Notes under the pieces: model-generated
Database searches by the model: none
Told to the model about the DNA's origin: nothing
What the model saw: the letters and a program-made list of their open reading frames with translations, nothing else
Program-made: the position numbers and the translations under genes
Virus record (IMG/VR): IMGVR_UViG_3300045988_130745
Reading direction: 5' to 3' (one strand)
Length of the DNA stretch: 64,000 nt
Source: a virus
Shown here: positions 32,328 through 62,344 of the stretch, one piece after another
How the letters are laid out: each line of letters starts with the position of its first letter
Numbering within the stretch: the stretch's first letter is position 1

Positions 32328-32348
32328 TTATATAAAATTCTTAATGTT

Positions 32349-32380
32349 AGTGCTCTCCATATTGGAGGGCACTTTTATTT
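32349..32380 (+). terminator. intrinsic terminator
   Basis: Stem agtgctctcc/ggagggcact followed by a T-rich run. Confidence 0.65.
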
Positions 32381-32412
32381 TAGAACAAAATTTTTTATAG
32401 GAGGAAATCGCA

Positions 32413-34770
32413 ATGGATATACTCCTTTTCGGAACTCTCCGAAAATATATCGACGATACTCTTCAAGGCATGGGTGCGCTCAAAGGCGAAAAAGGCGATC
32501 GTGGAGAAAAAGGTGCCCAAGGTCCAAAAGGCGATAAAGGCGACAAGGGAGACAAAGGCGCACAAGGACTTCGCGGTATTCAAGGCTTAACTGGTGCCAC
32601 TGGCGCGAAAGGCGAACGTGGCGCTCAAGGTATCCAAGGTTTAACCGGCCCCCAAGGTATCCCTGGCGTGCAAGGCATCCAAGGTCCAAAAGGCGAGAAA
32701 GGTGACAAAGGTGAAACCGGTCCCGTTGGTAAACGCGGTGTCCCTGGAGTTAATTACAACATTAAATACTTCTTGTCTACTCTTAATGAATTAAATGCCA
32801 TCACTCCTGTTACCGGTTATGACGAAGCTATTTTCGCTTATGTTGCTGAGAATAAATCAATCTATTATTCTTATGAAAGTTCTCCTTGGGCTTTCTTTGC
32901 AGATGCGTCTAATCTTTAGTTTGCGCGCGGAGAGCAAGGTGAGCAAGGTCCTCAAGGTGAGAAAGGTGATAAAGGTGACCAAGGCATTCAAGGCATCCAA
33001 GGACCGCAAGGTATCCAAGGGCCTCAAGGTCTTCAGGGCATCCAAGGAGGTAAAGGAGATAAAGGCGACAAAGGCGACAAAGGCGACCCTCTCACTTGGA
33101 ATGAAGTTCCAGCAGCTGCGCGCAAAGAACTTAAAGGTGAGAAAGGCGACAAAGGCGACACTGGTGATTCTGGTGTTTATTATGGTCCAACTGAGCCAGA
33201 AATTGACCAAGAAAAACTCGTTTGGATTGATTCATCAGTAGAAGAATCGGCTACCACAATTGATATTGCCAACATTCCTGGACTTCAAAAAGAACTTGAT
33301 TCTAAAGTTCAACTCCCAGCCAAAATTGAAAATGATACTCAATTATTTCCCGTTGTAACTTCAAAAGGTACGTCATGGGTCACTCTTGAAGAAACTGTCA
33401 ACGGAATTGTTAGTGAATGTGTAAATATCATCGTGCGTGGCACAGACAATGCGACTCTTAAAGGCACTGAAATTTATCTTCACGATGTAACAACTGACAC
33501 TATATCTACTTTTGAATGGAATGGAACCAGTTTGACTATTTATGTTTTAAATGGACACAAATATTTTATCAGTGGCGCTGAAGTTGAAGGATATGAGCCT
33601 GCCGCGGATAGTTTACAATATATTGCGCGAGCTGCATAGACTCGTACAATCACTTTATCTTATCCGCGCTCAGAAGAAGCAGAATATGGCATCCGATTTT
33701 TAATTGAATCATCAGATCCATCATGTGAGCGTGTAGTAGTCAAAAATAATATTACAACTTATGGCGAAGATACGGGTTTGGTGGCTGCTATTGGTACCAA
33801 ACTCACTATGCCTAAAAACAGTTTTGACGACATCTATCCTTGGTCAGATATTCGCATTGTAACTGATTCTGATAATGCTGCCGAGGCTGCGCAAACGATG
33901 GTTAAAATTCCAAAATATTATGTCAAGGTCACTGTTGATGATACCTATGAAACTTGGATGATTAGTCGTTATAAAAAAGCAGGATACCGTGTCGCAAAAA
34001 TGTTTGCTCGTCCTGATGGAACCGAAGCAGACTATTATGAATATGCCCGTTACGAGACCAGTGACACTAATCGTTCTCAAACTGGCGTCACTCCTCAAAG
34101 TTCAACCACTATTGAAGCATTTAGAACTGCCGCTCTTGGATTAGGTGATAATTGGCATCCAGCTGGACTTGCAGATCGAACTGATGGACTTCAGATGCTA
34201 ATGACTATTGAATTTGCTACTCGCAACATTCAGTCAATAGCAGAAGGTTTGGTTAATTCTAAAACCGTTTCTGATTGCGGTTTGACCGATGGTTTAACTA
34301 TTACCGAAGATTCAAAGGGCATTAAGCCTTATTCTGGTATTGTTAAAAATGCTTTTTCTTATCGTGGAATTGAAAACCCTTACGGTAATTTACTTGAATA
34401 TGCTGATGGTATTATTTTAAACAATTCTCGTGTGTACTATTGCGACGATTGGACTCGTTGGAGTAATTCAATCAATTCAAGTTACGTTCAAGCCGTTGGT
34501 ACTATTCCAACTTTAAGCGGATTTATTACTAAATTGAATTATAATGAAGCTAATCCTTGGATGCGTTTGCCTAGCGAAGTAGTCACTACTGGCGATAGCG
34601 ATAGTAATTATGGCGACTATTATAATGCTCCAACCGCAGATTATACCTTGCCAGTTTATGGCGGTGGTTATTCTACCAATTTGCGTGCGGGCTTATTCCA
34701 CTGGAATTGTACTCGTACTTTTAATGAAACAAATAGAGACATTGGTTCTCGTTTGGCTCGTAGTTTTTAA
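32413..34770 (+). CDS. collagen-like (GXY repeat) tail fibre protein
   Basis: Track ORFs 32413-32919, 33433-33639 and 33778-34770 are in frame (786 codons) and join through TAG. Two GXY blocks ([19 protein letters not shown]...). Confidence 0.75.
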
Positions 34771-34782
34771 GAGGTGATTGAA

Positions 34783-35106
34783 ATGAGAATATCAAAAGCA
34801 ACAAGCGAAATTCGCCCTCAAGATATTATTGAGCAATTATCAGCTAATCGTTTTTCTTGTCGCATTTGCGCGGACATTATTGAAACTGATAATGGTTTTG
34901 ATTTCACTAGCTATCGTGATTCATTTAGCGCATCTTCTTATCCAGAATTACTTGTGAATATTATTCACACTCGTTATACCTATGACGATGAAAACAATTT
35001 TATCAATGATTATATCGCAGAAGGCATGACTAAAAAATATCAAGACTACCGCGATTTTGTTGCTTGGGCTAAATCCCAAGCAAAATCTTATTTTAAGGAG
35101 GACTAA
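34783..35106 (+). CDS. hypothetical protein (possible fibre accessory)
   Basis: ATG at 34783 with an AAGAGG SD. Confidence 0.5.
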   Translation: MRISKATSEIRPQDIIEQLSANRFSCRICADIIETDNGFDFTSYRDSFSASSYPELLVNIIHTRYTYDDENNFINDYIAEGMTKKYQDYRDFVAWAKSQAKSYFKED

Positions 35107-35109
35107 CCT

Positions 35110-35769
35110 ATGCCTATAATGCAGCTATATGATAAAAATACAAGCACTTGGCAAGAAGTTCCTGCCTTAAAAGGTAGTGCCGCGAAAGTAGAAGTTGGCA
35201 CAGTAAAAACAGTGCCAGCCGCGGGACAAGCAAAAGTAACTAATGTTGGTACAAATACTAATGCAATTTTTGATTTTTAGCTTCCTCGTGGTATGGATGG
35301 TATTACTCCTATTCGCGGTACTGATTACTGGACGGCTGCAGACCAATAGCAAATCGTTAAGGATGTTTCTGATAAAATGAATTATCAGTTTACAGATTTA
35401 ATGAATGCTATTCAAAATAAACCAGTCACTTACATTTTTGATGATAAGGCTTCTCTTGATGGCGCGCTCAATCTAACTAATAACACAGTTACCTATAATG
35501 AAAAAGTATGTAAGCTAAATCCTGGTGATGTATTTCTTTTGGTTTCAATTAACGAACCAGATTATTGGTTTGGCGAGGATTCCAATGGTGAGAAACTCCA
35601 TGAACTTGATGCACGAAAAATGGAATTAACTGAATATGTTAAATCAAGTCAATTTCAAGTGATGAATATTGATGCTTATAATGCTATTGCTACAAAAGAT
35701 CCAAATACATTTTATTTCATCATTGAAAAATCAGACCCGACTTCAAGCGATGGGGAGGCAACAATCTAA
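35110..35769 (+). CDS. tail-module protein
   Basis: 220 codons. The N-terminal part, with two TAG codons, is in frame with track ORF 35377-35769. Contains GMDGITPIRGTDYWTAAD. Confidence 0.55.
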
Positions 35770-36602
35770 TGCCTATCTTCATTAATAACAAGCGAGTTTA
35801 GCTCATTTACAAAGGCGAAACTCCTATTGAAGAAATCCACGCTCAAAACGCAACTATTTGGACTCCAAAAGCAGATTTCGCCACGGCTTCATGGGCTGAA
35901 ATTAAAAAGTGGATTGAAAAGGGCACTTGGAAAGAATAGAATTGGAGCGAAGGAGACGCTCATACTATTCATATGAAGGATGGCCATATTCTCACTGCTC
36001 GAATTCTTGCAATATATGATGGCCGTGAGGAAAAAGCAACTTACAAAGGTCAAATTGATAGAGATGAAAATAATGTAAAACCGCACATGGTTCTTGAACT
36101 AACTACTTGTTTACCAGATTTTTATTCTATCAATCTAGAGCCAGAAGTAGAAAATACTCCTCAATCTTGGGGCACTTCAAATCTTTACAAGCTAATGTCT
36201 CCTGGTGGCGAAATATATGACAATCTGCCAAATGAACTTCAATCAATGATTATCCCGGTAATGAAAAAATCTGGTATTAGTGGCAAGGTTCAAAATTCAA
36301 CTCCTGAAACCACTAAGTCCTATCTTTTCCCGCTCTCAATTCGAGAGTATGTCGCAAAAGACAATATTACAAGTGAAATTAATAACAGCGAGGGTTCTCA
36401 ATATCAATATTATATTGATCATCCTGGCTATGTTACTAAAAAAGAATATGCTGGCGATAAAAATATCGTCTATTACACTCGTTCCGCAATGCAAGCTGAA
36501 AATGAACTTTATGAATATTTTTGGGCTATTGGCGGTGCGAATAACTATGCAACTTATCCATCCTATATTAGTTTAGGGACAAGTTTTGCATTTTGTATTT
36601 AA
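35769..36602 (+). CDS. tail-module protein
   Basis: TAATG overlap start. In frame with track ORF 35973-36602 through two TAG codons. Confidence 0.55.
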
Positions 36603-36613
36603 GGAGGTCTATT

Positions 36614-36787
36614 ATGGGTTTTAGCACTTTTAAGCAAGGCGCAGATAGTTATTATGAGTTTGTTTGCGATTCTGTTGATGATATTGCTAGTCTTCCTACT
36701 GATTGCGCACCCGGCTCTGTTGCTTTTGTTATTGAAGGTTCAGTTTGCTATATGCTAAACAATCAAGAGACATGGAAGCCTATTTGA
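36614..36787 (+). CDS. hypothetical small protein
   Basis: AAGGAGG SD at 36601-36607 and ATG at 36614. Confidence 0.5.
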   Translation: MGFSTFKQGADSYYEFVCDSVDDIASLPTDCAPGSVAFVIEGSVCYMLNNQETWKPI

Positions 36788-36791
36788 TTTT

Positions 36792-37139
36792 ATGAAACTT
36801 TACGGAAGTATTGCGAATTATAACTCTATATCTGGCACAATTAATCCAGCGGGTGATATTTCCGGTGCGCTATCTAATCCGCTGGCGCGTGGTGCTTCAG
36901 CCTATGAAATTGCTGTTGCTAATGGCTATGTAGGAACTGAGGAGAAGTGGCTTGAATCACTCTAGGGGCGAACTCCTTAGCGTGGAGTTGATTATTGGAC
37001 GGCCGCAGATATAGAGCAAATGAAACAAGAGTTTAGAGAATAGATGGCTAATGAAATTCAATAGGCAGTCAAAAATTTAAACTTAGATGTTTCTTTTGAT
37101 ATTGAAGATGGACATTTATTTGTGGATATAAAGGGGTGA
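36792..37139 (+). CDS. tail-module protein (paralog of 23783-24370 N-terminus)
   Basis: [42 protein letters not shown]...[10 protein letters not shown]. Several in-frame TAG. TGA at 37137-37139. Confidence 0.5.
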
Positions 37140-37143
37140 GTTA

Positions 37144-37461
37144 ATGGACATAATTACACTTGCGTTGACTCGTAAGGCAGTTAGAGATGCTCACGTTGAC
37201 CATATAGGACCACAAGGACCGGTTGGACCGAAAGGTGAGAAAGGCGATAAAGGTGACCCATTTACTTGGAACGATCTCACTGCGGAGCAAAAGAAAGAAT
37301 TAACTGGTCCAAAAGGTGATAAAGGCGATACAGGTGGAGTTGGCTATGTCTCTTTTGAGAGTGGCAACGATGGACACTTGTACGCCGTTATTGCCGAAGG
37401 GACTGATGAAATCAGTTTCAGAATTTCCGATGATGGTAAGCTGGAGGTAATCTACGCATGA
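37144..37461 (+). CDS. small collagen-like protein
   Basis: 105 aa with [17 protein letters not shown] and [10 protein letters not shown] blocks. Confidence 0.6.
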
Positions 37462-39881
37462 GTAAAAGAATAGATTTAGGCGCAGTAACCGCTTACGCCA
37501 TTGCAGTTAAAAATGGATTTGAAGGCACAGAAGTAGCCTGGCTTGCAAGTCTTAAAGGTGCAAAGGGCGACAGGGGTGAAAAAGGCGAGCAAGGCGCGCC
37601 AGGTATTTAGGGAGAAAGAGGAGCAACTGGTGAAACTGGCCCTATTGGCCCTCAAGGTATCCAAGGACCAAGAGGTGCTCAAGGTGAGAAAGGAGATACT
37701 GGCAATGTCGGCCCAGCTGGTCCTCAAGGACTAAAAGGCGAAACTGGTGCAGTTGGACCAGCTGGGCCGCAAGGTAAGCAAGGCATCCAAGGTGAAAAAG
37801 GTGAAACTGGTGCTGCAGGCGCCCGAGGTGAACAAGGTCCGCAAGGTATTCAAGGCATTCAAGGTCCAAAAGGCGAGAAAGGCGATCCTTTCAGTATAAA
37901 GAAAATTTATGTTTCTGTTGCTGCAATGAATGCTGATTTTGACGGTACTGATACTTCTACTGGTGATTTTGTTCTTATTAACACTGGCAATGTTGCAGAT
38001 GAAGATAATGCAAAGCTCTATGTAAAAGGCGAGAGTGCTTTTACTTTTGTCACTGATTTGTCCGGCGCGGCTGGTATACAAGGTCCGCAAGGTCCTCAAG
38101 GAGTGCAGGGTGTTCAAGGAGAACAAGGTATTCCGGGTGTAAAGGGTGACAAAGGTGATCCAGGCTCTGATGCAACTGTCACTACTGATAATATCACCTC
38201 TGCTCTTGGCTATACTCCCGCAGATTCAACCAAAGTTTACACTAAAACTGAAGTTGACGGAATGATTGATGGTGTTTATGCTCAAGCCGTTCGCAATGCG
38301 ACTTCTGTTGCTCAAGTCAACGGCTTGTTCCAAGAGTGGTGGAAGAAAAATTGGGTTGAAGATACCTCCACCCACACTCAAATGCTTGAGCGTTGGTTTG
38401 GAAATGTTCTTACCAGTAGCAAGGTTTATGGTACCAAGCTACCTTTGTTTGCTACTTCAAATAGTGCAAATGGCGAGTATATTGACGATTCTGTTGGCAT
38501 GACTTGCACTCCTTCAACTAACGCAGTTCTTGGTCAAGATGACTTCGCATTCAAGCCAGAGTTCTGGTGCATCGAAGCATCTGGTGAGCATAATTCTGAC
38601 GGTTCAATTACTATCTATGCTGTTGAATTAATTGATGACATTGCTACCGTTCGTTCTGGCGAGCATTTGACTTGGGTTCTTCAAAAGAATACTTATTGGC
38701 ATGAATATACCAGTGAAGGTTATCATTTCGTCGAACTCAAATCAACTCCTGATGAAACTTGGCATCGTTGGCCGCAAGGTACATCAAAAGATGGTACAGT
38801 TCATGAGTTTATTGCTAACCCGAAGTATTATGCCGGAATGAAAGATGGAACTATTACTGTTGGCACTAATCTTCCTGCAATTAATTTTACTTCTCATCAA
38901 TCTGGCGTTGCTCTATGGCGCAAGCGTGGCAGTCAATACTCTGGCGCGAGTGGCAACCTTATCAAGTTCCTTGATATTATGATGAAGTTAAAGTATGCTA
39001 AGAAAGGTAACTCTGGGACTATTGAAGGTTGTTCAAACTATAACTGGCAATATACTACTCCTGTTGGCGAGACAGGCGTAGAACGTATTATTGTTACTAC
39101 CGCGCAGGGTGCAAATATTAAAGTTGGCTCAACTGTTATTATTGGTAAGAAAGGCGGCTCTACCGATCGTGGCGATAGTGCTATGAGAAGCCTTGTTTCA
39201 ATGAAGAAAGTCAAAAGTTTGGAGCCAGTCACTATTGATGATACTTCTTATACAGCCGTTAATATTGATAATGGCGGAACAACTTTTGATACAGTTGCGA
39301 GTGAGACAATGATTTCTTCTATGCCTTATCACTCTGGATACAATGACAACGTATTAGGTTATGATGGCAGTGCAACTAATTACACCAATGGTTCTGAACC
39401 TGGTTTGCTCCAGAAGATTGAGTTCCAGAATGGTGCTTATCTGATTATTTCAGATGAATTGTGGCAATGGAGCAAAGATGATACAAACTATATGTTTGAT
39501 TGCTATACTTGCCATGATTAGTCAAAAGTTACTACTAATGGAACAATTTCTTCTGACTATACAAAGCAAGCTGATTTGACTTTGAAGTGGGCAGTTGAGG
39601 GTGCTAATACAAGTTGGCACTGGGAATATATTGAAGATACTGCAATCGCTAATGATCCAGCAGTTTGCTGGCCAGCTAAAGTATCCACGACAGCTGGTAG
39701 CGGAACTGGTTGTAAAGCTGGCTTCGGCGTCGCTTTGGCGTCGTCTGGTGTGCGTGCTGGTTGGTGTTTCTGCGGTTTGTGGGGTGGCGGTCTTTGTGGT
39801 GTTTCAGCTCGTAACTCGGACGTTTCTCCTTCGTATTCTGGCTGGTACGGGGCGCTCGGCGGTCCAGGTCTTGCGGGGTGA
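37458..39881 (+). CDS. collagen-like tail fibre protein carrying the DGR variable region at its C-terminus
   Basis: ATGA overlap start. 807 codons in one frame, joining track ORFs 37926-39521 and 39576-39881 through TAG. GXY blocks are present. The last roughly 55 codons are the VR. Confidence 0.8.
39719..39865 (+). repeat. DGR variable repeat (VR)
   Basis: 147 nt align without gaps to 40222-40368. All 19 mismatches I counted sit at adenines of the other copy. Confidence 0.85.
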
Positions 39882-39920
39882 ATCGAAGCCTAGGAGCACG
39901 AAGTGCGGATAGGCAAGAGA

Positions 39921-39936
39921 GGGGACGCAAGTCCCC
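39921..39936 (+). promoter_or_regulatory. GC hairpin downstream of VR (candidate DGR target-recognition hairpin)
   Basis: ggggac-GCAA-gtcccc, a 6-bp stem with a GNRA-type loop, about 55 nt after the VR end. Confidence 0.45.
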
Positions 39937-40221
39937 GTTATAATGGAAACGACCCATCCGTGCGATACGCCCGACTGTTGACTCGATCTCAATTGAATGC
40001 AGCAATAGCATGATTTAATTGAACCATTAACTTTCAAGTCTTGTTTCATACGAAACCGAGATAGATTCAATGACTTTACCGCCATTCAAGAATCTATATA
40101 ACCTAGAATAAAATTCCAAGGATACGATTCAAAGTTTAGGGAAGGATTTCTCTACTACAAAATCCTCCATTCAGTTCTTTCGGCGCTTAACGAAAGTAGG
40201 GACGTATTCCGTTGGCAGATT

Positions 40222-40368
40222 TGGCTTCAACGTCAATTTGGCGTCGTCTGGTGTGCGTGCTGGTTGGTGTTTCTACAATTTGTAGAATGGCGGTAATTGT
40301 GGTGTTTCAGCTCGTAACTCGAACAATTCTCCTTCGAATTCTAACTGGAACGGGGCGCTCGGCGGTCC
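40222..40368 (+). repeat. DGR template repeat (TR)
   Basis: Adenine-rich copy with many AAC/AAT triplets. Invariant GC-rich end GGGGCGCTCGGCGGTCC is shared with VR (IMH-like). Confidence 0.85.
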
Positions 40369-40566
40369 TAGCCGGTCTTGCTTGCGGAGCAGTTTTACAA
40401 CAATAATGCGGATTACGTTCCTAGACTTATTTAGTTGAAATTGCTCCTGCGTAGTCAAGACCGGCTTATTTTTTTATTCAGAAAAGAATAAGCTTAACCG
40501 CGTCTAGTAGCTTCGGCGAAAGTCGCACGGGGAGACCGGCCAAAGGACTAATAAGGAGGGCTACTT

Positions 40567-41874
40567 ATAAAGACTTTTTGTAAGCCCGCAAATACTAATA
40601 TATGCGATCCAGAGTTTATTTACTGGGCGGTTTATGATTGTGTTAAGCATAAACTTTATCGTAATGATTTTCTTGATTTATTATGTACTCAAACAGGTAT
40701 ATCTCGCCGCGTAGTGATAAAGGAGCGTTCACAATTAAATGAATCAACTCCTATGATTGACGGCGCAATCAAGAAATTATCTGAAAAATGCGCTCAAATG
40801 ATTGCTGATAACAAACTTAAATTTAGAGAACTTCGTCAATTCAATCGAGTTGATGGTATTTCTGGAAAGAAAAGAGATATTTGTCAAGAATCTCCTCTCC
40901 AGCAAGTATTTGAATACATCGCGGTTTACGCACTTCAACCACTTTTTGATGCTAAAATTTTATATTGCCAATTTGGCAGTATCCCAGGTAAGGGACAAGT
41001 CAAGGGCGCGCAAAGAATTTCATATATTCTCAATAGTCCAAAGTTCAAAGACAAACGAGTGGACTGTATTAAATGTGACGTCCGCAAGGCTTATCCATCA
41101 ACAAAAGTAAGCACTGTTCATAATCTTATCACTAAATATTGCGGTAAGAATAAATAGTTAATTGGTTTAGTTGATGCTATCATGGCAAACTACCCTAATC
41201 ACCATTTAATTATTGGTGGCTACTTTTCCACTTGGACATTTAATTTAGTAATGAGTGAAGTTTTGCGTGAGTTTAATAAACTTTATAAAGAGCGCCGTGG
41301 ACAGCGAATTAAACTGGTCGAAAAAATTGTTTGCTATGCAGATGATTTTCTCTTGTTTGGATACAAGTCCAATTTGGAGCGTGCGATTAAGACAGTTGCT
41401 AAACGTATTAAAGCACAATTTGGTTTAGAAATCAAAAATGTCTGGACGATAATTCAATTCCCATCTAAAGAGGTTGAAAACCATCCTCGCTATAAAAATA
41501 CTTTTATTGATATGATGGGTTTCAGAATTTATCGCCATTACCGTGGCATCCGCAAGAAAATTTTTCGCAGAGCGCGTAGACAATTTATCCGTGCAAATCA
41601 ACTCTCTTATGTACCTGTTTGGAGAGCGCGAAAAGTTGCGGCATATAATAGCTGGCTTACATATTCTAAAAGTCGTGGAGTAATCCTCAATTATCATATA
41701 AATACCCTAATGAATCGTTCGAAGCAATCCATATCTAATCATTCTAGGGAGGAATTGACAAGTTATGAAAGAGACTTATTGCTCTATCCCGAAAGCTGTT
41801 TTGACTTTCCCCGTTGGCGGAAAAACCGACGTTATTTTGAGGAAAAATATCGAAAAAGTCACCAAACAGGGTAA
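40567..41874 (+). CDS. DGR reverse transcriptase
   Basis: YADDFLLFG gives the YxDD motif, and IPGKGQVKG is present. Track ORFs 40714-41157 and 41182-41874 are in frame and join through one TAG. The frame is open from 40555, just after AAGGAGG. No canonical start exists before the GTG at 40714, so the 5' end is uncertain. Confidence 0.75.
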
Positions 41875-42118
41875 TTCGGAAGAAGAAACCTATGATGCTT
41901 ACGAGTGCGACGAAGTTCAATTCCGTTATGATGGCGCGCTGACAGTAGAAGAAGTTGAAAATGATTTTGACTCTTGGTGGAATTATCCAGCCAAGGCTTC
42001 TATGACTCTTGACGAGCGTGTCTCCGCACTTGAAAATTCAAAAGCAGATAAATCAGATGTAGAACAAATTTACGATGCTATTGCTGCAGCCTATCAAGAA
42101 GGAGTGCAATCAGTATGA
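41765..42118 (+). CDS. hypothetical acidic protein
   Basis: 117-aa ORF. Its start overlaps the RT 3' end by about 110 nt. Confidence 0.45.
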   Translation: MKETYCSIPKAVLTFPVGGKTDVILRKNIEKVTKQGNSEEETYDAYECDEVQFRYDGALTVEEVENDFDSWWNYPAKASMTLDERVSALENSKADKSDVEQIYDAIAAAYQEGVQSV

Positions 42119-42552
42119 CAAGTAAAGATTTTATTTTGAATACTTTCCGCGCGAAAGGCAAAGCAGATGCTCAAGCACTTCAAAAGCAAGCAAAAAATTT
42201 AACTGGTACTGAAATTATTGCCAATGAAGGATGTATTCCCGAATGGGAACCTAATAAGGATTATTCTTCTTGGTTAGTTGGCGCGCCAGTTAAGTATGAC
42301 GAACAAGTATGGATTTTATTGGTTCCTCATACTGTTTCAGCAATTTCACCAAAAGAAGATCGTGAAAATTGGTCATTGTGCCATACAACAGATGCCTTCG
42401 CTGCAAAGAAATGGGTAGCTCCTGTTGGCAGCTATGGACACTACATGAAAGATGAAGTTTACGTTGATGATAATGGCTTCATCTGGAAATGCTTACAAGA
42501 TGACACAATTCTTTCTGCGGCCGACTATGCTGATGCTTGGATTGAAGTTTGA
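42115..42552 (+). CDS. hypothetical protein (Trp/Tyr-rich, possible carbohydrate-binding)
   Basis: 145-aa ORF with an ATGA overlap. Confidence 0.55.
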   Translation: MTSKDFILNTFRAKGKADAQALQKQAKNLTGTEIIANEGCIPEWEPNKDYSSWLVGAPVKYDEQVWILLVPHTVSAISPKEDRENWSLCHTTDAFAAKKWVAPVGSYGHYMKDEVYVDDNGFIWKCLQDDTILSAADYADAWIEV

Positions 42553-42560
42553 CATATATT

Positions 42561-42589
42561 GGGTTGGAAGAAATTCCAGCCCATTTTTT
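42561..42589 (+). terminator. intrinsic terminator
   Basis: Stem gggttggaa/ttccagccc followed by T6. Confidence 0.7.
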
Positions 42590-42592
42590 GTA

Positions 42593-42621
42593 TTGACTCC
42601 CGCACAAAGATATGATATAAT
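42593..42621 (+). promoter_or_regulatory. family promoter
   Basis: TTGACT 42593-42598 and TATAAT 42616-42621. Confidence 0.75.
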
Positions 42622-42642
42622 ATTTATAGAAAGTTAAGGAGA

Positions 42643-42948
42643 ATGATTATGACAAAGTTTAAAATTTATGCTGGTTTGAAGCGCCCTTATGCGCCATTGC
42701 ATTTAGTTGATGAAAAAGAATTTTTGACTAATCGAGAAGCAAAATGGTATGCTCGTGAGTGCGCGAGAAAGATTTATCGCGATCATGAACCTTATGATTC
42801 TGCTCTTGTGACTAAAGAAGAAATTCGTGAGCATCCAACTGATTTTGGCATTTATCCTTTGGAAGAGGAAGATTTCTTTGAGTCCGATGTTGAGCTTGAG
42901 TATCTTCACGCAATGGATAATTGGTTGCTTTTTGATGTGGAATTTTAA
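42643..42948 (+). CDS. hypothetical protein
   Basis: 101-aa ORF behind a promoter and a TAAGGAG SD. Confidence 0.6.
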   Translation: MIMTKFKIYAGLKRPYAPLHLVDEKEFLTNREAKWYARECARKIYRDHEPYDSALVTKEEIREHPTDFGIYPLEEEDFFESDVELEYLHAMDNWLLFDVEF

Positions 42949-42957
42949 TTATTCCTA

Positions 42958-42986
42958 TTGACTTTTTAAGATATATATGATATAAT
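42958..42986 (+). promoter_or_regulatory. family promoter
   Basis: TTGACT 42958-42963 and TATAAT 42981-42986. Confidence 0.75.
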
Positions 42987-43019
42987 ATATATAGAAAATC
43001 AAGAGAGGAAGAATGAGTA

Positions 43020-43328
43020 TTGGGTTTTGATTTTGTTATCTACGATTATGAGAATCAAAAAACTATTTGTCATGTTGAAGGGTACGATATATCCGATATT
43101 AAAGAAATTTTTATTTGGATTGTAGCTGGTGATGAAACTGGCAGTCTAACAATGCAAGATGGCACTGTTTATGATTTTGATGCCTCGGATAATCGTTTTG
43201 CAGATTTTAATGATGGCTCCTATACTGTTGAAGGGAAGGAAAACATCGAGAAGTGGCTTAATTTTCAACCGACTGAAAAGGAGTCTCATCTCACTTTTTC
43301 TTATGTGCGCCAAGGGAAATGGGGTTAA
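43020..43328 (+). CDS. hypothetical protein
   Basis: 102-aa ORF with a TTG start after GAGAGGAAG. Confidence 0.5.
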   Translation: MGFDFVIYDYENQKTICHVEGYDISDIKEIFIWIVAGDETGSLTMQDGTVYDFDASDNRFADFNDGSYTVEGKENIEKWLNFQPTEKESHLTFSYVRQGKWG

Positions 43329-43537
43329 TATCAATGTGGCTTGTTCGTTATAAAGCAAAAGCAGATACTAGCTGGGCGACTTTCATTTCCAATGCCGCTT
43401 TGATGAATTTTGCTGCACAGGATTTTATTGATTACTGGTTTAAACGGCATGATAAAATTCCGCCGCAGATTAAAGATTTTCACGAAGCTCGAAAAATTAT
43501 GTGGAATGAAGGTATAGATTTTTATATTACCTTGTAA
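43319..43537 (+). CDS. hypothetical protein
   Basis: 72-aa ORF. Alternative start at the ATG at 43334. Confidence 0.5.
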   Translation: MGLISMWLVRYKAKADTSWATFISNAALMNFAAQDFIDYWFKRHDKIPPQIKDFHEARKIMWNEGIDFYITL

Positions 43538-43552
43538 GAAAGGAAGATTATT

Positions 43553-44002
43553 TTGATTGTTTCTGAGATTGAAATGAATATGAAAGCCGCGCTGAAACAG
43601 GATAGAATGGAAGATAAGAATGATTATTCTTATCTTTTATCTCGCTTTCGCGCGAAAGAAGTTGAGCTTCGCCGTGAATTGACTAATGACGAAGCTATCG
43701 ACGTTATCCGCAAGGAAGTCAAACAGATGCAGAAAGATTATGACGCAATGTCTGGCGATTTGCTCAACACTCATTATGCTAAGGGCTTGAAGCGTCAGAT
43801 TGACCTTTATTCCATCTACTTGCCTAAAATGATGTCTTATGATGAGGTTTTGGATTATCTGCGTGGAATGGATGCTGAGTGTATGCTCCCAACTGCTTTT
43901 GGCGCAGCGATGAAAGCTGTTCGCGCGGAGATTGGCGCAAAAGCAGATGGTAAGACCATCTCTCAGGCGTTGAAAAATTATATGGCTCAGGAGAAAAAGT
44001 AA
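43553..44002 (+). CDS. GatB/YqeY-domain protein
   Basis: The length (149 aa) and the pattern MKAALKQD...LLSRFRAKEVE...IDVIRKEVKQ...YLPKMMSYDEV...KTISQALKNYM match YqeY-type proteins. Confidence 0.55.
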   Translation: MIVSEIEMNMKAALKQDRMEDKNDYSYLLSRFRAKEVELRRELTNDEAIDVIRKEVKQMQKDYDAMSGDLLNTHYAKGLKRQIDLYSIYLPKMMSYDEVLDYLRGMDAECMLPTAFGAAMKAVRAEIGAKADGKTISQALKNYMAQEKK

Positions 44003-44305
44003 ATGAAGATTTTTAGAATGAAACGTGGAGAAGGCAAAACCTCTCGTCTGATCGAGGAGAGCGCAAATTCTGGCGTTCCTATTTTTGCTATTGATGACCA
44101 TCGGCGACGTATTCTGATGGAAAAGGCAAATGTGATGGGTTATAAGATTCCTTCGCCTGTTACTTTTGATGACCTTGCTGCGGATAAGACAATTGAAAAA
44201 ATCATTGTAGACGATGCAGAATATACTTTGCCTGCTATCATTGAGTATTTCCTTGGTATCCACATTACAGCCGAAGCTTTTTCTACTAACACTCTTGAAG
44301 ATTAA
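44003..44305 (+). CDS. hypothetical protein
   Basis: 100-aa ORF immediately after the YqeY-like gene. Confidence 0.55.
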   Translation: MKIFRMKRGEGKTSRLIEESANSGVPIFAIDDHRRRILMEKANVMGYKIPSPVTFDDLAADKTIEKIIVDDAEYTLPAIIEYFLGIHITAEAFSTNTLED

Positions 44306-44334
44306 TTGACTTTAGAACGATTTTATGCTATAAT
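44306..44334 (+). promoter_or_regulatory. family promoter
   Basis: TTGACT 44306-44311 and TATAAT 44329-44334. Confidence 0.75.
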
Positions 44335-44367
44335 ATTTATAGAAAGTTAAGAAAGGATATTTAAATT

Positions 44368-44898
44368 ATGACTAAGTTTATTCCTGCTGTTCCTCGTTTG
44401 ACCGCTAAGCGTGACGGCGACATCGCTTATCACAAGCCGAGTTTTTCGTATTACATTGACCGAGATAAAACTGGATGTATCAATGGTCAGCTGTATCATG
44501 GCGTCGTAGTCGCTAAGCTGAGTGGCGGTGTTCGCGATCTGGTAAATATTTGGACTAAGCGTGACGCTTTTAGGATTTGTGAGCTAGGGGAGATTGCCTC
44601 TCTACTCCATGTTAATTCCGACCTTGGTCCTGCTTATTGCGTGTTTGAGGGCAAGGCTTACTGTTCGGTTGATGATAAGTGGGACGAGAACGAGGGTATG
44701 AAGATTGCTCGTCGCAAGGCTTGGACTCAGTATTACCATGCTCTGGCAAATTATACCTATGATTATCAGAAGCGTGTCGCTGCGCTGTATGAGCAGATTA
44801 CCAAGTATGCTGATTTTGCGGTAAAGCGCAGTTGCGAGCTAGATATGGAGAATACTGAAGTCCAGAAGATGCTTGAAGGAATGTCGGAAACTGTTTAA
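44368..44898 (+). CDS. hypothetical protein (GC-richer, TAG-free)
   Basis: 176-aa ORF with the same CGT/GCT-rich codon style as 10482-11972. Confidence 0.6.
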   Translation: MTKFIPAVPRLTAKRDGDIAYHKPSFSYYIDRDKTGCINGQLYHGVVVAKLSGGVRDLVNIWTKRDAFRICELGEIASLLHVNSDLGPAYCVFEGKAYCSVDDKWDENEGMKIARRKAWTQYYHALANYTYDYQKRVAALYEQITKYADFAVKRSCELDMENTEVQKMLEGMSETV

Positions 44899-45008: not shown

Positions 45009-45092
45009 GCGACTGTGGCCCAGTGGACAAAGGCGGGTGCCTGCAAAGCACTTAATTTTTTATCGTTGGTTCAAATCCAACCAGTCGCTCCA
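45009..45092 (+). tRNA. tRNA-Cys (GCA) with an enlarged variable region
   Basis: Acceptor gcgactg/cagtcgc, anticodon stem ggtgc/gcact with loop CTGCAAA, 12-nt AT-rich variable region, T loop TTCAAAT, CCA encoded. Confidence 0.65.
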
Positions 45093-45104
45093 AGGAGTTT
45101 TGCT

Positions 45105-45881
45105 ATGAAAGATGTAATAGGAATTTATAAAATCACAAATTAGATTTCTGGGAAAGTCTATATCGGGTAGTCTAGGCATATCCATAAAAGATGGCAGGAA
45201 CATTGTTAGCCTTCTTCAGATTCAGTTATTTCAAGAGCTATTAAAAAGTACGGTCAAGAAAATTTTACTTTCGAAATAATTGAAGAATGCCCGTTAGAAT
45301 CGTTAAATGAGAGAGAAGAATTTTATATTAAAAAATATAATTCTTGTGTACCTAATGGCTATAATGTTATGTCTTCTTCAAATGGAATCTAGTCTAAATT
45401 CTTTCTTTTAGAAGAAAAGCAACTAGATAAAGTAATTTAGTTTTTACAAGCTGATGATAAAACCTATTCTCAGATTGCTGATTTAACTGGTTTAGATATT
45501 TCTACTATTTCAAGAATTAATAATGGCGAAATTCATTATAATGAGAATCTTTCTTATCCTATTTCAAAGAGAGATGCTGGTAAATGGTTAAAAGTAAATC
45601 ATTATTGCATTGATTGCGGTACACCCATTTGTCGATAGGCGATCCGTTGTAAAAAATGTAATGTTATATTTTTAACTAAAAATAAAATTTCTAGTCCAAG
45701 ACTTGAATGTCCAGCAAGAGAAATTTTAAAACAGGAAGTATTTTCTTTACCTTTAGAAGCGGTTGGAAGAAAATATGGAGTAACTGGTAGTGCAGTTAAA
45801 AAATGGTTGGGAAAATATAATTTGCCAACTCGGAAAAGTGATATTTCATCTTATTCAAAAGAAGAATGGGATAAATTATAA
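45105..45881 (+). CDS. GIY-YIG homing-endonuclease-like protein (copy c)
   Basis: MKDVIGIYKITN[TAG]ISGKVYIG[TAG]SRHIHKRWQEH. 259 codons with several TAG. Starts 13 nt after tRNA-Cys. Confidence 0.8.
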
Positions 45882-46040
45882 TATGCAGTTAGTGAGTTTG
45901 ACTCTCACCCGCTGCTCCAGAACGGAGTTCCCTATTAGATTTCCAATGGGAATTGAGCTTCACGGTTTGATTGAGTTAGTCCGTCGTCCTCAGTATTGAA
46001 TAGGCAATCAAGAGGAGAAGATACGAAAATTCTTCATTAT

Positions 46041-46116
46041 GCGCGAGTAGTCGAACGGCATAGACACTACGCTAAGGACGTAGGATTTGTGGGTTCAAAT
46101 CCCACCTTGCGCACCA
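46041..46116 (+). tRNA. tRNA with AAG anticodon (Leu by anticodon), short variable region
   Basis: Acceptor gcgcgag/cttgcgc, anticodon stem ctacg/cgtag with loop CTAAGGA, T loop TTCAAAT, CCA encoded. Confidence 0.65.
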
Positions 46117-46134
46117 ATAGGAAGGAGAGTTATT

Positions 46135-46365
46135 ATGGGCAAATTGAAGACGACCAAGATGGTTTATGGTCGAGCAATGGTTGGAACTGATGCTTACAAA
46201 AAGAATTTGTCTAGTAAGCGCTCAAGGCGTAGTGATCAGAAGAGAAAACAAAACTATTGTTCAGCCGCGATTAAAACCAATCTGACTTGGGAACAGAAAC
46301 TAATTCGATGGTTTGAAAAAATTGAGCGCTGGTTTTTAGATTATTTTGAAAGGTTTTTTAATTGA
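46135..46365 (+). CDS. hypothetical basic protein
   Basis: GGAAGGAGAG SD and ATG at 46135, in frame with track ORF 46087-46365. Confidence 0.5.
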   Translation: MGKLKTTKMVYGRAMVGTDAYKKNLSSKRSRRSDQKRKQNYCSAAIKTNLTWEQKLIRWFEKIERWFLDYFERFFN

Positions 46366-46655
46366 TGAAAATTTTGACTGCGCCAGTTGTTAGTTATGAA
46401 GTTCTTCAAGATGATTTGATTCATGCCAACATTATTAAAAGAGAAGATGTTGATAATGATTATTCATACGTCCTTGGTTTGCTTTTTGCTGATAATTGGA
46501 GTTACGATTGCTATTTGAAACTTTATCTAAATGGCAAACCCATTCCAGAGAATCTTGATATAAGCGCAACTGCTTATCTGAAGAAGTGCAATGAGATTTA
46601 TACTTATTTACGCGAGAAGGCTCCGGGTTATGATTTTATTTTGATTGAGACTTAA
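46362..46655 (+). CDS. hypothetical protein
   Basis: 97-aa ORF with an ATGA overlap. Confidence 0.55.
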   Translation: MMKILTAPVVSYEVLQDDLIHANIIKREDVDNDYSYVLGLLFADNWSYDCYLKLYLNGKPIPENLDISATAYLKKCNEIYTYLREKAPGYDFILIET

Positions 46656-46681
46656 AATCTATAAAAAAGTGGGATGAAGTA

Positions 46682-46915
46682 ATGGAACAGACTATATTCT
46701 ATGAGACAGGTTGGTATGAACCTGAGATTTTGGGGTCTGGCGGTTCCTATACCGGAGTTGCAAAAACGACTTCTGAGGAGGAAGCGTTACAACGGTTGTT
46801 GAAATATTCTGCCAATTATGCATATCGTATTACTGTATATAAAAAAGATGGCAAAATCATAAAGCGGGAAATTGCCGAGTATGATCAATGGGAAAAGAGA
46901 TGGAGAGCAACCTGA
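46682..46915 (+). CDS. hypothetical protein
   Basis: 77-aa ORF. Confidence 0.55.
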   Translation: MEQTIFYETGWYEPEILGSGGSYTGVAKTTSEEEALQRLLKYSANYAYRITVYKKDGKIIKREIAEYDQWEKRWRAT

Positions 46916-47015
46916 TGAAGTAGAAATTTATACTGAGTAACGGAGCAATCCATAGAAATTAAAAGTCTTGAAATTTATAATCACTTGTGCGAGAAGGCTT
47001 AAAGAAAGGATTAAA

Positions 47016-47426
47016 ATGAGTAAGAGGAAAAAGAATACTCCTGTAAGTGATTGGGTTTATGATGATTTGATGAATTATTTTGAGTTCTGTTTTGGTGGCG
47101 CTCATGTATTTCGTTCAAATAAAGCGAAGAAGTATCTTTTTGAAATTCTTACTCACGATTCTAACTGGACTGTTGAAAATGTGCATAATGAATATTATGT
47201 TCTTTATCATAATCCAGTTTATCAACCTCGCGCGAAGATTCATGTTCAAGCAAAAGATACCAATTTGATTTGGCTTTTGTGGATTGCATATACGCATGAT
47301 TTCTACAAGTATAACAAACTTCCTTTTGAAAAAGGAAAAGGCAAAGATTATTGGCGTTTCGTTGAAGATTTTAAACACTATCTTACTTATAAAGGTCTTC
47401 ATTGGACAGAAGATGATTTTCAATGA
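47016..47426 (+). CDS. hypothetical protein
   Basis: Internal ATG of track ORF 46968-47426, preceded by AAGAAAGGA. Confidence 0.5.
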   Translation: MSKRKKNTPVSDWVYDDLMNYFEFCFGGAHVFRSNKAKKYLFEILTHDSNWTVENVHNEYYVLYHNPVYQPRAKIHVQAKDTNLIWLLWIAYTHDFYKYNKLPFEKGKGKDYWRFVEDFKHYLTYKGLHWTEDDFQ

Positions 47427-47427
47427 T

Positions 47428-47456
47428 TTGACTTTTGATAGATAATATGCTATAAT
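47428..47456 (+). promoter_or_regulatory. family promoter
   Basis: TTGACT 47428-47433 and TATAAT 47451-47456. The transcript into 47457-47612 has no ORF. Confidence 0.7.
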
Positions 47457-47614
47457 ATTTATAGAAAATGAGATTCATTCGTAGATAAGAATTAAAAATC
47501 GCTAAAGACAATAATGTTGCTCTAATGTGGGAACGTGAAGGCTACGACATATCCGATACTGTTAAACGAAATCCCTATGAGCTTGCGTGAGATTGAAACT
47601 GCTCACCGAATGAA

Positions 47615-47643
47615 TTGACTTTTTATGATTTCTATGATATAAT
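47615..47643 (+). promoter_or_regulatory. family promoter
   Basis: TTGACT 47615-47620 and TATAAT 47638-47643. Confidence 0.75.
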
Positions 47644-47658
47644 ATATATAGAAAATGA

Positions 47659-47725
47659 AAGACAGAAGCAGCAAAATACTTACAATCAGAACTTAAAATT
47701 CTAATATTGGTAAGAAGCTGTCTTG
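47659..47725 (+). ncRNA. stem-CAGCAA element E7a
   Basis: Helix aagacag/ctgtctt, AAGCAGCAAA, 3' G. Confidence 0.5.
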
Positions 47726-47747
47726 ATATGGGATGAAATGAGATTCT

Positions 47748-47817
47748 AAGACGATTTCTGCAAAACTTTTGATGTTTTAACAATATGGATGATAAAACAA
47801 AATGAAAAATCGTCTTG
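47748..47817 (+). ncRNA. stem-CAGCAA element E7b (CTGCAA variant)
   Basis: Perfect helix aagacgatt/aatcgtctt, TCTGCAAA, 3' G. Confidence 0.45.
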
Positions 47818-47828
47818 ATTTTTATTAT

Positions 47829-47903
47829 GGATGGTTCGTACAACGGCTAGTACAAGAGACTGTTAATCTCCTAATGGGGTTTCGACTACCTCACCGTCCG
47901 CCA
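47829..47903 (+). tRNA. tRNA-Asn (GUU)
   Basis: Acceptor ggatggt/accgtcc, anticodon loop CTGTTAA, T loop TTCGACT, CCA encoded. Confidence 0.85.
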
Positions 47904-48026
47904 AGAGCGTTGATGGGACGCTTCTTAATATCCCATTGCCAATAGGGGAGCATTAACGACGGTTAATGAGATTAAGGTGCCTCCACACCGGCCTTATATT
48001 TTATTTATTCTGGAGGAGAATAAATT

Positions 48027-48773
48027 ATGCATAATCCTATTTGTGGTATTTATAAAATTACTAATTTGATTAATGGAAAATGTTACATCGGTTAGAGTGT
48101 GAATATCAAACAAAGATGGAGAGATCATCGTTCAAGGGCCATATCCAAAGGTTCAGAAGGGTTTGAGAGTTATTTTTATCGTTCTATTAGAAAATATGGA
48201 CTAGAGAATTTTTCTTTTGAAATCTTGGAAGAATGTCCTAAAGAATAGTTAAATGAAAAAGAGCAATTTTATATTGCAAAGTATCATTCAAATCAAGAAA
48301 GTTTTGGTTACAATTTAACTGAAGGCGGCGATTCTGTAGGAGGAAAAGCAAAGAAACTTTCTGATAAAGAGTTGCAAAGCATAATTTATGATTTGAAGAA
48401 TACGTTGTTATCATAGGCTGAAATTGGGTAGAAATACCATATTGCTTAGACTACAGTTAGTGGTATTAATCGAGGAGAATTTCGTTATTAGGACAATGAA
48501 ATTTATCCATTAAGGACAAGAAATGTTTTAAAAGAACGTGGTTTTGTTGATGGCTATAAGACTTGCCCAATTTGCGGAAAGAAATTTCAAGGCAAAGCTA
48601 AAACTTGTTCGATTGAATGTGGTAAAATTCGTGTAAGAAAAATAAAAGTAATTCCTAAACGAAGTGCTTTAAAATATCTAATTCGTAATTATTCATTTGA
48701 ATGGATTGGTCATCAATTCGGAGTAAGTAGTAACACAATAAAGAAATATTGTGATAAAGCTAATTTACCTTGA
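48027..48773 (+). CDS. GIY-YIG homing-endonuclease-like protein (copy d), ending at a premature-looking TGA
   Basis: MHNPICGIYKITNLINGKCYIG[TAG]SVNIKQRW. The conserved C-terminal tail (SYSDGEWEKV) continues in frame after the TGA at 48771-48773 up to the TAA at 48822-48824. Confidence 0.75.
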
Positions 48774-48852
48774 ACAAAGACTTTAATCAATTCTTATTCA
48801 GATGGAGAATGGGAAAAGGTTTAAAATTCTGCCAGGTAACTGGCATTTATAT

Positions 48853-48928
48853 GCGCGTGTAGTTTAATGGTAAAATCGCGGACTTTTAATCCGTCAGACT
48901 GGAAGTTCAAGTCTTCTCACGCGCACCA
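48853..48928 (+). tRNA. tRNA-Lys (UUU)
   Basis: Acceptor gcgcgtg/cacgcgc, anticodon loop CTTTTAA, T loop TTCAAGT, CCA encoded. Confidence 0.85.
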
Positions 48929-48961
48929 TTAGCTCGTCTACCATGCGTAGAAAGAGTTTTT

Positions 48962-48987
48962 GAAACCGTTTGCGCGGTTTCTGTTTT
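48962..48987 (+). terminator. terminator-like hairpin between two tRNAs
   Basis: Stem gaaaccg/cggtttc followed by a T-rich run. Confidence 0.4.
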
Positions 48988-48989
48988 AT

Positions 48990-49073
48990 CCCTCATTAGA
49001 CCATAAGGATTGGGGTGGGTCTGTAAAACCCATGCGTTTCGCCGGGATGGTTCGATACCATCATGAGGGACCA
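48990..49073 (+). tRNA. tRNA-Tyr (GUA), type II
   Basis: Acceptor ccctcat/atgaggg, anticodon stem tgggt/accca with loop CTGTAAA, long variable arm, T arm gatgg-TTCGATA-ccatc, CCA encoded. Confidence 0.8.
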
Positions 49074-49096
49074 CTTATTTTAAGAAAGGATATATT

Positions 49097-49381
49097 ATGG
49101 ACTTTTTTGTTGGGAATTTTACTGACTGGTTCAATAGTTATGCTAAGGATAAGTTGTTTCGTCTTTGGTATAAAGAGGACGAAAAACTTGGTCTGGATGA
49201 TGGCTATGATGGAGTTTGTCAGTATGTTTATCTGAGACAGGCAATCAATCTTGGTAACGATTGGTTGATTGGTTATGCTGTATTTGATGAACGCGAAAAG
49301 GATAATATGTATCCTAGTTTGAACTGGGTTAAGTTGAGTGAAATTGATTTAGCTTGGTACAAAGGTGACGAGGAAAAGTAA
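49097..49381 (+). CDS. hypothetical protein
   Basis: 94-aa ORF with an AAGAAAGGA SD. Confidence 0.55.
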   Translation: MDFFVGNFTDWFNSYAKDKLFRLWYKEDEKLGLDDGYDGVCQYVYLRQAINLGNDWLIGYAVFDEREKDNMYPSLNWVKLSEIDLAWYKGDEEK

Positions 49382-49395
49382 TTTCCTCATTTTAT

Positions 49396-55848: not shown

Positions 55849-55850
55849 AA

Positions 55851-62132: not shown

Positions 62133-62136
62133 TTAT

Positions 62137-62211: not shown

Positions 62212-62215
62212 TTTA

Positions 62216-62338: not shown

Positions 62339-62344
62339 TCTTAT

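Follow-up and report, generated by a model that had tools for sequence, protein, structure and literature searches.

Organization of the locus

The stretch of DNA analysed here (the window) comprises 64,000 nucleotides of one strand of the IMG/VR virus record IMGVR_UViG_3300045988_130745. It contains, inside the tail-fibre module of a gut phage of about 176 kb, a diversity-generating retroelement (DGR) with the layout target gene with variable repeat (VR), template repeat (TR), spacer and reverse transcriptase (RT). The evidence gathered below makes it very probable that the element at 37458-41874 is active, lacks an accessory gene, and diversifies the tip of a tail fibre in a phage that translates TAG as Gln. 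The following features are discussed; IMH stands for initiation of mutagenic homing.

37458-39881, plus strand: DGR target gene, encoding a collagen-like tail fibre of 807 aa; TAGs at 37608-37610 and 39519-39521 read as Gln; stop codon TGA at 39879
37557-37891, plus strand: collagen-like G-X-Y tract 1 (9-nt-periodic repeat families D1 and D2; Pfam PF01391)
38064-38170, plus strand: collagen-like G-X-Y tract 2 (9-nt-periodic repeat families D1 and D2; Pfam PF01391)
39719-39865, plus strand: VR, codons 755-803 of the target gene; 19 of 19 mismatches at TR adenines
39849-39881, plus strand: IMH-like end of VR, consisting of a 17-mer identical to TR (39849-39865) and a diverged segment that runs into the stop codon
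39888-39914 and 39921-39936 (GGGGAC-GCAA-GTCCCC), plus strand: two hairpins 3' of VR (DNA fold)
40222-40368, plus strand: TR, containing 25 adenines and, in register, 11 AAY codons and a TAG (40283-40285)
40369-40566, plus strand: structured TR-RT spacer, the putative 'Sp' region of a DGR RNA (RNA fold and consensus of relatives)
40567-41874, plus strand: DGR RT, probably of 435 aa (Pfam RVT_1, PHROG 1423, profile and fold matches to a DGR RT in the PDB)
3558-3633, plus strand: suppressor tRNA with the anticodon CTA (ARAGORN)

Template and variable repeats

VR and TR align over 147 nt without gaps at an offset of 503 and differ at 19 positions. At all 19 the TR base is A, and VR has G (13 positions), T (4) or C (2); with 25 A in the 147 nt of TR, the hypergeometric probability that 19 of 19 mismatches fall on A is 4.8e-19. 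The same pair was also recovered independently by a repeat finder (repeat D3). Read in the frame of the target, TR contains 11 AAC or AAT codons. Both repeats terminate in the GC-rich 17-mer GGGGCGCTCGGCGGTCC (39849-39865 in VR), beyond which the copies diverge through two short insertions in the TR copy, so that the homology continues with indels, VR reading A-GGTCTTGC-GGGG and TR reading TAGCC-GGTCTTGC-TTGCGGAG. The GC block, the divergence after it and an inverted repeat that follows VR only are the features of an IMH/IMH* pair, the function of which is putative here. These properties had largely been anticipated in a preliminary description made from the sequence alone, which had reported gapless 147-nt repeats at these coordinates and in this register, 19 differences with A in TR at each, a TR full of AAC and AAT triplets, and an identical GC-rich end followed by IMH/IMH*-like divergence. 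It had also pointed out that mismatches outside the TR adenines would speak against a DGR, and rigorous alignment revealed none. A scan of both strands of the window that allowed any base at the template adenines found no further VR for this TR.

Reverse transcriptase

The open reading frame (ORF) 3' of TR, in which the preliminary description had recognized a YADD RT, has an in-frame TAG at 41155-41157 and YADD at 41335-41346, and its product carries a C-terminal extension that is basic. It scores 36.9 bits with Pfam RVT_1 and is assigned to family 1423 by PHROGs. A search of 5.8 billion proteins revealed a large family of relatives of about 418 aa at 42-48% identity, and in addition a few closer relatives at 54-60% identity. 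The family profile has its best PDB match with 8ub7_A, the RT of a DGR ribonucleoprotein (328 aa; E 7e-8), and group II intron and retron-type RTs score 3e-3 to 7e-3 with the same profile; the profile was required, as a single-sequence phmmer search of the RT against the PDB gave nothing useful. In agreement with this, a Foldseek search with an AlphaFold model of P0003, a homologue with 54% identity (predicted local distance difference test, pLDDT, 85.9), had 8ub7_A and 8ubd_A as top matches (E 1e-14, template modelling (TM) score 0.82), and the group II RT GsI-IIC reached a TM score of 0.57. The most telling point is genomic context: at about 50 of 80 fetched loci of RT relatives, a VR/TR pair of about 150 nt lies directly upstream of the RT gene and differs at template adenines only, and therefore the whole family is a DGR RT family. 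Thus, profile, fold and neighbouring repeat pairs all group the RT with DGR RTs and not with those of group II introns or retrons; the latter grouping had been named beforehand as a possible refutation.

The 5' end of the RT gene is unusual. The family alignment places the protein's N-terminus 49 codons (147 nt) upstream of the first GTG (40714), and these 49 codons are open and homologous (IKTFCKPANTNICDPEF...) to the N-termini of the relatives, which read MKT(Y/F)CKP.... They are preceded by an in-frame TAA TAA, and the first possible start codon is ATA at 40567, which sits 7 nt past the Shine-Dalgarno (SD) motif AAGGAGG (40553-40559). The arrangement of ATA and SD motif is identical in 20 of 20 related loci (L001-L020), and sister lineages have ATG or TTG at the position of the start codon. 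From the sequence comparison, it is probable that translation of the RT begins at ATA 40567 and yields a protein of 435 aa; the RT of the preliminary description is present, and its true gene would be longer than the apparent ORF.

Reassignment of TAG

Both the 807-codon fibre ORF and the RT ORF are open only with TAG as a sense codon, a dependence that the preliminary description had left unstated when it correctly called the two genes; the in-frame TAGs start at 37608 and 39519 in the target gene (two codons) and at 41155 in the RT gene (one codon). In the window, 32 of 40 plus-strand ORFs of at least 150 aa contain in-frame TAG, 112 codons in all. At the position of fibre residue 688, encoded by TAG, all 52 aligned homologues have Q, among them proteins of relatives without any in-frame TAG. 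Residue 51, also encoded by TAG, is the Y of a collagen G-X-Y triplet, and GIQ and GPQ triplets are abundant in the fibre. Public gene calls for near-identical contigs already render these TAGs as Q. Similarity to the other tRNAs of the window did not reveal which amino acid the tRNA-CTA carries. Nevertheless, because of the presence of this tRNA, the wide distribution of in-frame TAG, its occurrence in an invariant Q column and the public gene calls, the sequence data indicate that the phage decodes TAG as Gln (genetic code 15). The tRNA-CTA is thus needed for reading the TAGs in the target gene, in the RT gene and in TAG-bearing VR alleles.

Altogether, 28 tRNA genes were found in the 64 kb, in clusters at 1122-3633, 9996-14171, 45009-49816 and 61588-62697. 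ARAGORN additionally reported an odd tRNA-like gene with a 2-nt anticodon at 62621-62697 and a tRNA-Ile(tat) of 93 nt at 12534-12626.

Natural diversification

Contigs of the same clade were gathered by exact protein look-up, by searching viral and metagenome collections for an invariant pattern of 37 nt, and by the RT. An ungapped alignment of 2.2 kb around the cassette gave 95-98% identity between related contigs and the window. In 10 strains, diversity is highest in VR, with 0.11-0.18 per site at 39750-39849, and drops to zero at the IMH block and over most of TR. In a set of 19 distinct VR alleles, none of the 25 A-templated sites is constant, the overall A retention is 43%, and differences at other sites number at most two per allele. 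TR itself is nearly invariant (three single-base variants in 27 copies). Because VR alleles vary at the A-templated sites while TR hardly changes, there is strong, albeit indirect, evidence from the sequences that mutagenic retrohoming is ongoing and that the element is active.

The repeats also appear in the public data in another way. Many short assemblies (L009-L012, L015-L020) stop within TR, some 500 nt upstream of the RT gene as called, and contig L013 carries a collapse of VR and TR of 503 nt. Evidently, the DGR repeats fragment or mis-join assemblies of this clade, as a hypervariable repeat would.

These data bear on two other explanations of the locus. The repeats might be an ordinary duplication or gene-conversion pair, the A bias of which is coincidental or compositional, for which nothing speaks beyond the existence of the repeat. 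This has practically no probability: the A-only pattern would arise by chance at a rate of about 5e-19 and recurs in about 50 independent relatives, a DGR-type RT adjoins the repeats, and variation between strains is strictly confined to A-templated sites. The A-only mismatches, the strain variation and the VR/TR pairs of the relatives thus already refute an ordinary duplication.

The second explanation is that the cassette is a relic, with old differences between TR and VR and an RT pseudogene that is broken by TAG and devoid of a start codon. Indeed, the standard code splits the RT ORF at 41155, and the conserved N-terminus lacks an ATG, GTG or TTG start. Against this, TAG is read as sense all over the window (112 in-frame TAGs, tRNA-CTA), and the RT ORF is conserved together with ATA and SD motif in 20 of 20 related contigs; moreover, diversification must have been recent and repeated to give 19 VR alleles in near-identical genomes that share an invariant TR. 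A relic is therefore highly improbable, and an active DGR is the preferred reading.

Target protein

The target gene ends a run of fibre-like genes. The N-terminal third of its product is collagen-like (Pfam Collagen, E 1.6e-21), which is the only domain that Pfam finds in the protein. The fibre matches many PHROG tail-fibre families, and residues 275-797 match phrog_17147, the function of which is unassigned. VR occupies codons 755-803 of 807, so that its placement at the C-terminal end of the fibre in the preliminary description holds. An AlphaFold2 model of the 96%-identical protein P0135 is confident over residues 260-807, and most of residues 270-770 have a pLDDT above 90. In the PDB, this model significantly matches nothing but three chains of TaqVP (5vf4; E 4e-5 to 2e-4, probability 1.0), the DGR variable protein of Thermus aquaticus, which has a C-type-lectin fold. 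From this model match, and not from Pfam, a C-type-lectin-like (CLec-type) fold is predicted for the VR domain, as had been expected for a DGR target. Unlike the fibre of the window, TaqVP is cellular and has no collagen stalk, and the two proteins are only 7-9% identical in sequence.

A second collagen-like fibre of 808 aa is encoded at 32344-34770, and its C-terminus resembles the ends of DGR targets of the CLec/formylglycine-generating-enzyme type. When it was tested as a second target, no TR-like repeat for it was found within the window; it is either a paralogous fibre that is not diversified or a former target.

Non-coding elements

The motif GGGGTGAAT in the IMH-like end of VR is kept across relatives. 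Downstream of it, the window and 12 of 12 inspected relatives have a common layout, GGGGTGA(stop)AT, a hairpin, AAGAG and a GC hairpin (GGGGC-loop-GCCCC), although the stem sequences differ between the window and the relatives. In Bordetella phage BPP-1, an inverted repeat after VR promotes target recognition (PMC5758913), and the two hairpins are candidates for a target-recognition inverted repeat, a terminator, or both.

The spacer between TR and RT gene is predicted to be highly structured. Its RNA fold has an energy of -80.4 kcal/mol (z -4.25), and none of 200 shuffled sequences was as stable. A 97-nt hairpin (40370-40466) begins one base past TR and is followed by a U-run, a stem-loop CUAGUAGC...GAAAG lies at about 40500-40530, and AGCCGGTC (40370-40377) could form a closing helix with GACCGGCC (40534-40541). 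Sequence motifs and a consensus structure of the spacer are common to 15 relatives: a segment that immediately precedes the SD motif of the RT gene is paired with the 3' end of TR, a stem-loop GGCUAGUA(C/G)C...GAAAG follows, and double changes occur at 5 of the 12 consensus pairs. The spacer is thus the putative counterpart, in this family, of the spacer (Sp) region of BPP-1. It has no match in Rfam, and a search of 36-43 kb of the window against Rfam at permissive E-values gave one chance-level match only, inside the collagen repeats.

Accessory gene

The gap between VR and TR (340 nt) and that between TR and RT gene (198 nt) contain no ORF, and the VR-TR gap of relatives is merely about 100 nt. 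Among 11 neighbouring ORFs (34774-44898), none has an Avd-like match in Pfam or PHROG, and none of the accessory genes avd, HRDC, MSL or CH1 was found at the cassette. Two ORFs of 117 aa and 145 aa that follow the RT gene were considered as Avd and rejected, being acidic or neutral and without a match to Avd, Pfam or PHROG. The preliminary description was right in proposing a DGR, and had left the lack of avd in the cassette unstated.

An accessory gene is not obligatory for a DGR, because 29% of catalogued DGRs have none ('Architecture A'; Wu et al. 2018, PMC5758913). A profile search in the same study found no avd elsewhere in those accessory-less genomes, and its RT 'Lineage 3' is wholly devoid of avd (PMC5758913). 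It might nevertheless be argued that the element requires an Avd-like protein in trans, encoded elsewhere in the phage genome (about 176 kb) or by the host, as Avd is essential in the BPP-1 system (PMC5758913) and the view is limited to 64 of about 176 kb and to 11 neighbouring ORFs. In contrast, the whole RT family, including phages of 35-65 kb, has the order target-VR-TR-RT without room for avd, and the accessory-less DGRs of Wu et al. had no avd elsewhere in their genomes. In addition, the RT is about 100 aa longer than the RT of BPP-1 (bRT) and has a very basic C-terminal extension. A requirement for Avd in trans is therefore rather unlikely, and a DGR that operates without an accessory gene is preferred.

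A TAG codon in the template

The TAG at 40283-40285 is in register with the target, and all TR copies of the clade have it (27 related contigs). It is found at the same TR codon (NLqNG) in the sister recoded lineages L113 and L114, the RTs of which are 54-56% identical to that of the window, whereas 22 distinct TRs of standard-code relatives have AAC at the homologous codon and no in-register stop codon. No A-to-N change of TR yields TAA or TGA, and thus TR is free of stop codons only under the phage's own code, because the in-register TAG is a sense codon there. The 19 VR alleles have TAG (5), TCG (7), TGG (6) or TTG (1) at this codon, and the A retention of 26% is inside the range of the other A sites (2-15 of 19). 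Adenine mutagenesis of TAG gives Gln, Ser, Trp or Leu, of which Trp and Gln cannot be reached from AAY. On balance, it seems probable, with moderate confidence, that the template is co-adapted to the alternative genetic code of the phage, in that one diversified codon is TAG and is AAC in standard-code relatives.

Under the standard code, each cDNA that copies the adenine of the template TAG faithfully would truncate the fibre, and it might be asked whether this TAG, in the template and in the VR alleles that have it, is a real or leaky stop codon that cuts off the last 27 residues. The efficiency of suppression in the host could be limited, and the A is kept in 5 of 19 alleles, somewhat below the average of 43%. 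However, this value falls inside the range seen at the other A sites, and TAG-bearing VRs occur as the consensus sequence in genomes assembled from several samples. Nearly invariant scaffold residues (G778, S787, W796, G798, G801 and G807) follow the TAG, the two other in-frame TAGs of the fibre gene are at conserved Gln positions, and the template TAG has been kept across lineages whose RTs are only 54-56% identical. Termination at this codon is therefore improbable, and its use as a sense codon is favoured.

Apparent TGA codons in the TRs of 'TGA-recoded' relatives were also considered, and turned out to be an artefact of a stop-poor, GC-rich frame that disappears in the AAY-rich frame. A description of stop-derived sense codons inside a DGR template was not found in the literature searched. 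The template TAG shows how a reassigned stop codon has joined the repertoire of a hypermutation system, a small and concrete interaction of code change and targeted mutagenesis. If co-adaptation is true, the production of the diversifier (through the TAG and the ATA of the RT gene) and the readability of part of its output would both hinge on the phage suppressor tRNA. The ATA start and the in-frame TAG may limit synthesis of the RT to the time at which an active phage suppressor tRNA is present.

The sister lineages comprise L113 (logan ERR10610497_63419), L114 and L115, with RTs 54-60% identical to that of the window. The target gene of L113 has in-frame TAGs, and a T4-type RNA ligase is encoded downstream of its cassette. 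The contig of L115 holds just the 3' end of TR, so that the template-TAG codon lies off the contig.

Comparison with known systems

The closest well-characterized system is the DGR of phage BPP-1 (mtd-VR, avd, TR, brt). Both elements show A-specific mutagenesis from TR to VR, a VR at the 3' end of a tail-fibre gene with a C-type-lectin-type tip (predicted in the window), a GC-rich IMH/IMH* at the ends of the repeats, an inverted repeat 3' of VR and a structured spacer between TR and RT gene, and bRT (8ub7) is the closest solved relative by profile and the best structural match of the model of the 54%-identical homologue. Unlike BPP-1, the cassette of the window has no avd, its RT of about 435 aa (328 aa in bRT) is extended at both the N- and the C-terminus and reads IGGYFSTW instead of IGxxxSQ, VR is followed by two hairpins, the second about 55 nt past the GC-rich block, the stalk of the fibre is collagen-like, TAG is translated as Gln, and a TAG codon is present in TR.

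The target-TR-RT order on one strand, the missing accessory gene and the C-terminal CLec-type VR are also typical of 'Architecture A1' and RT 'Lineage 3' DGRs (PMC5758913); this likeness is one of architecture, and the family of the window comes from gut phages of 35-180 kb.

Diversification of fibre tips by DGRs is well known, and DGRs of TAG-recoded gut phages are already in print. Passages of Lou et al. (10.1101/2023.08.07.552389) describe such DGRs, in which both the RT and the neighbouring tail target have in-frame TAGs and VR changed over three years. Zeta crAss-like phages are described, in passages of PMC12386605, as having genomes of 176-189 kb, a tRNA-CTA, a class III ribonucleotide reductase (RNR) and mostly Avd-less DGRs acting on CLec-tipped fibres. 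As far as these passages go, the window shares with the TAG-recoded phages a recoded RT beside a recoded tail target, the Avd-less state of most of their DGRs, a genome of about 176 kb, a tRNA-CTA, many tRNAs and a class III RNR. In contrast, GxxxSQ is reported there for Zeta crAss RTs (PMC12386605), and the RT of the window is without it; a TAG codon inside TR or VR is mentioned in neither set of passages (10.1101/2023.08.07.552389; PMC12386605). The resemblance to Zeta crAss-like phages (proposed Echekviridae), in genome size, 28 tRNAs, tRNA-CTA, class III RNR with ATP-cone and DGR, is circumstantial. A megablast search with 16 kb gave no nucleotide match of at least 85% among GenBank phage records, and therefore the clade is not among the deposited genomes.

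Proposed mechanism and weight of the evidence

The following course of diversification is proposed by analogy with BPP-1. The RT would bind an RNA composed of TR and the structured spacer of 198 nt, and cDNA synthesis would begin near the GC-rich 3' end of TR (IMH*). Random nucleotides would be incorporated opposite the 25 template adenines, and VR would be replaced by the cDNA, guided by the IMH and by the two hairpins 3' of the stop codon of the target gene. In this way, 13 codons (11 AAY, one TAC and one TAG) would be re-randomized on the predicted C-type-lectin-like tip of the collagen-like fibre, which would allow about 1.4e14 possible proteins and presumably change receptor binding. The priming site, homing without Avd and binding of a receptor by the tip are steps that we infer; a switch of tropism by the fibre of the window may be the consequence.

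The A-specific pattern of TR and VR, diversification limited to A-templated sites, a DGR-type RT, a target with a CLec-type fold (predicted from its model) and the translation of TAG as Gln are directly supported, as are the absence of avd nearby and the presence of conserved non-coding elements. With the A-only repeats, the DGR-like RT, the CLec-type fold and the strain variation, the DGR proposed in the preliminary description is supported.

It should be noted that several observations weigh against an active DGR as described here, or at least soften parts of it. Retrohoming has been deduced, with strong support, from the comparison of alleles among contigs and thus indirectly, and some of the 'VR alleles' (L013, L106) look like assembly chimeras of VR and TR. 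The conserved N-terminus of the RT lacks a canonical start codon, and the canonical motif [I/L/V]GxxxSQ is replaced by IGGYFSTW. Both structures were modelled on homologues instead of the window's own proteins, the RT on 54%-identical P0003 and the fibre on 96%-identical P0135, and the match to TaqVP has a low global TM score (0.22-0.45), as only part of the multidomain model aligns. Lastly, an Avd could be encoded outside the 64-kb window. With regard to the motif, alignment by hidden Markov model pairs the SQ of bRT with TW, and the W is nearly invariant in the RT family. GxxxSP and similar variant motifs are known in other phage DGR RTs according to passages of PMC12386605, and IGGYFSTW is therefore a variant feature and no ground for exclusion. 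The ATA start, the non-SQ motif, the spacer, the post-VR hairpins and the template TAG are secondary features that leave the category of the element unchanged.

The cassette offers a clear natural case of an active phage DGR without Avd, and its non-coding parts have been mapped across a large family. The mapped IMH, post-VR hairpins and TR-RT spacer RNA should be useful for work on Avd-independent retrohoming and for the engineering of compact DGRs. In addition, programs for the detection of DGRs that assume the standard code, ATG/GTG/TTG starts or GxxxSQ may split or miss cassettes of this kind.

Other features of the window

Downstream of the RT gene, a 50-nt direct repeat with 76% identity (42583-42632 and 42948-42997) lies 5' of small ORFs and contains TTGAC..N..TATGATATAATAT; by its sequence, it looks like a repeated phage promoter. 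Three paralogous ORFs resemble GIY-YIG homing endonucleases (1907-2629, 12794-13588 and 48027-48773). They have the common N-terminus ICGIYKITN.ING.CYIGQS, each adjoins a tRNA cluster, and with 6-13 in-frame TAGs each they have the highest TAG density of the window; the ORF at 1907-2629, the only one of the three that was checked, matches GIY-YIG in Pfam (E 3e-10).

A class III anaerobic RNR, NrdD, with an N-terminal ATP-cone is encoded at 14782-17058 (Pfam E 1e-146). A homologue of YcaO cyclodehydratases is found at 58843-60636 (Pfam E 3e-33), and radical S-adenosylmethionine ORFs at 7530-8810 (E 5e-14), 55824-57197 (weak) and 4607-5974 (CxxxCxxC motif only). Judged from sequence similarity, the YcaO and the radical S-adenosylmethionine ORFs together look like a set for peptide modification of the kind that acts on ribosomally synthesized and post-translationally modified peptides (RiPP-like).

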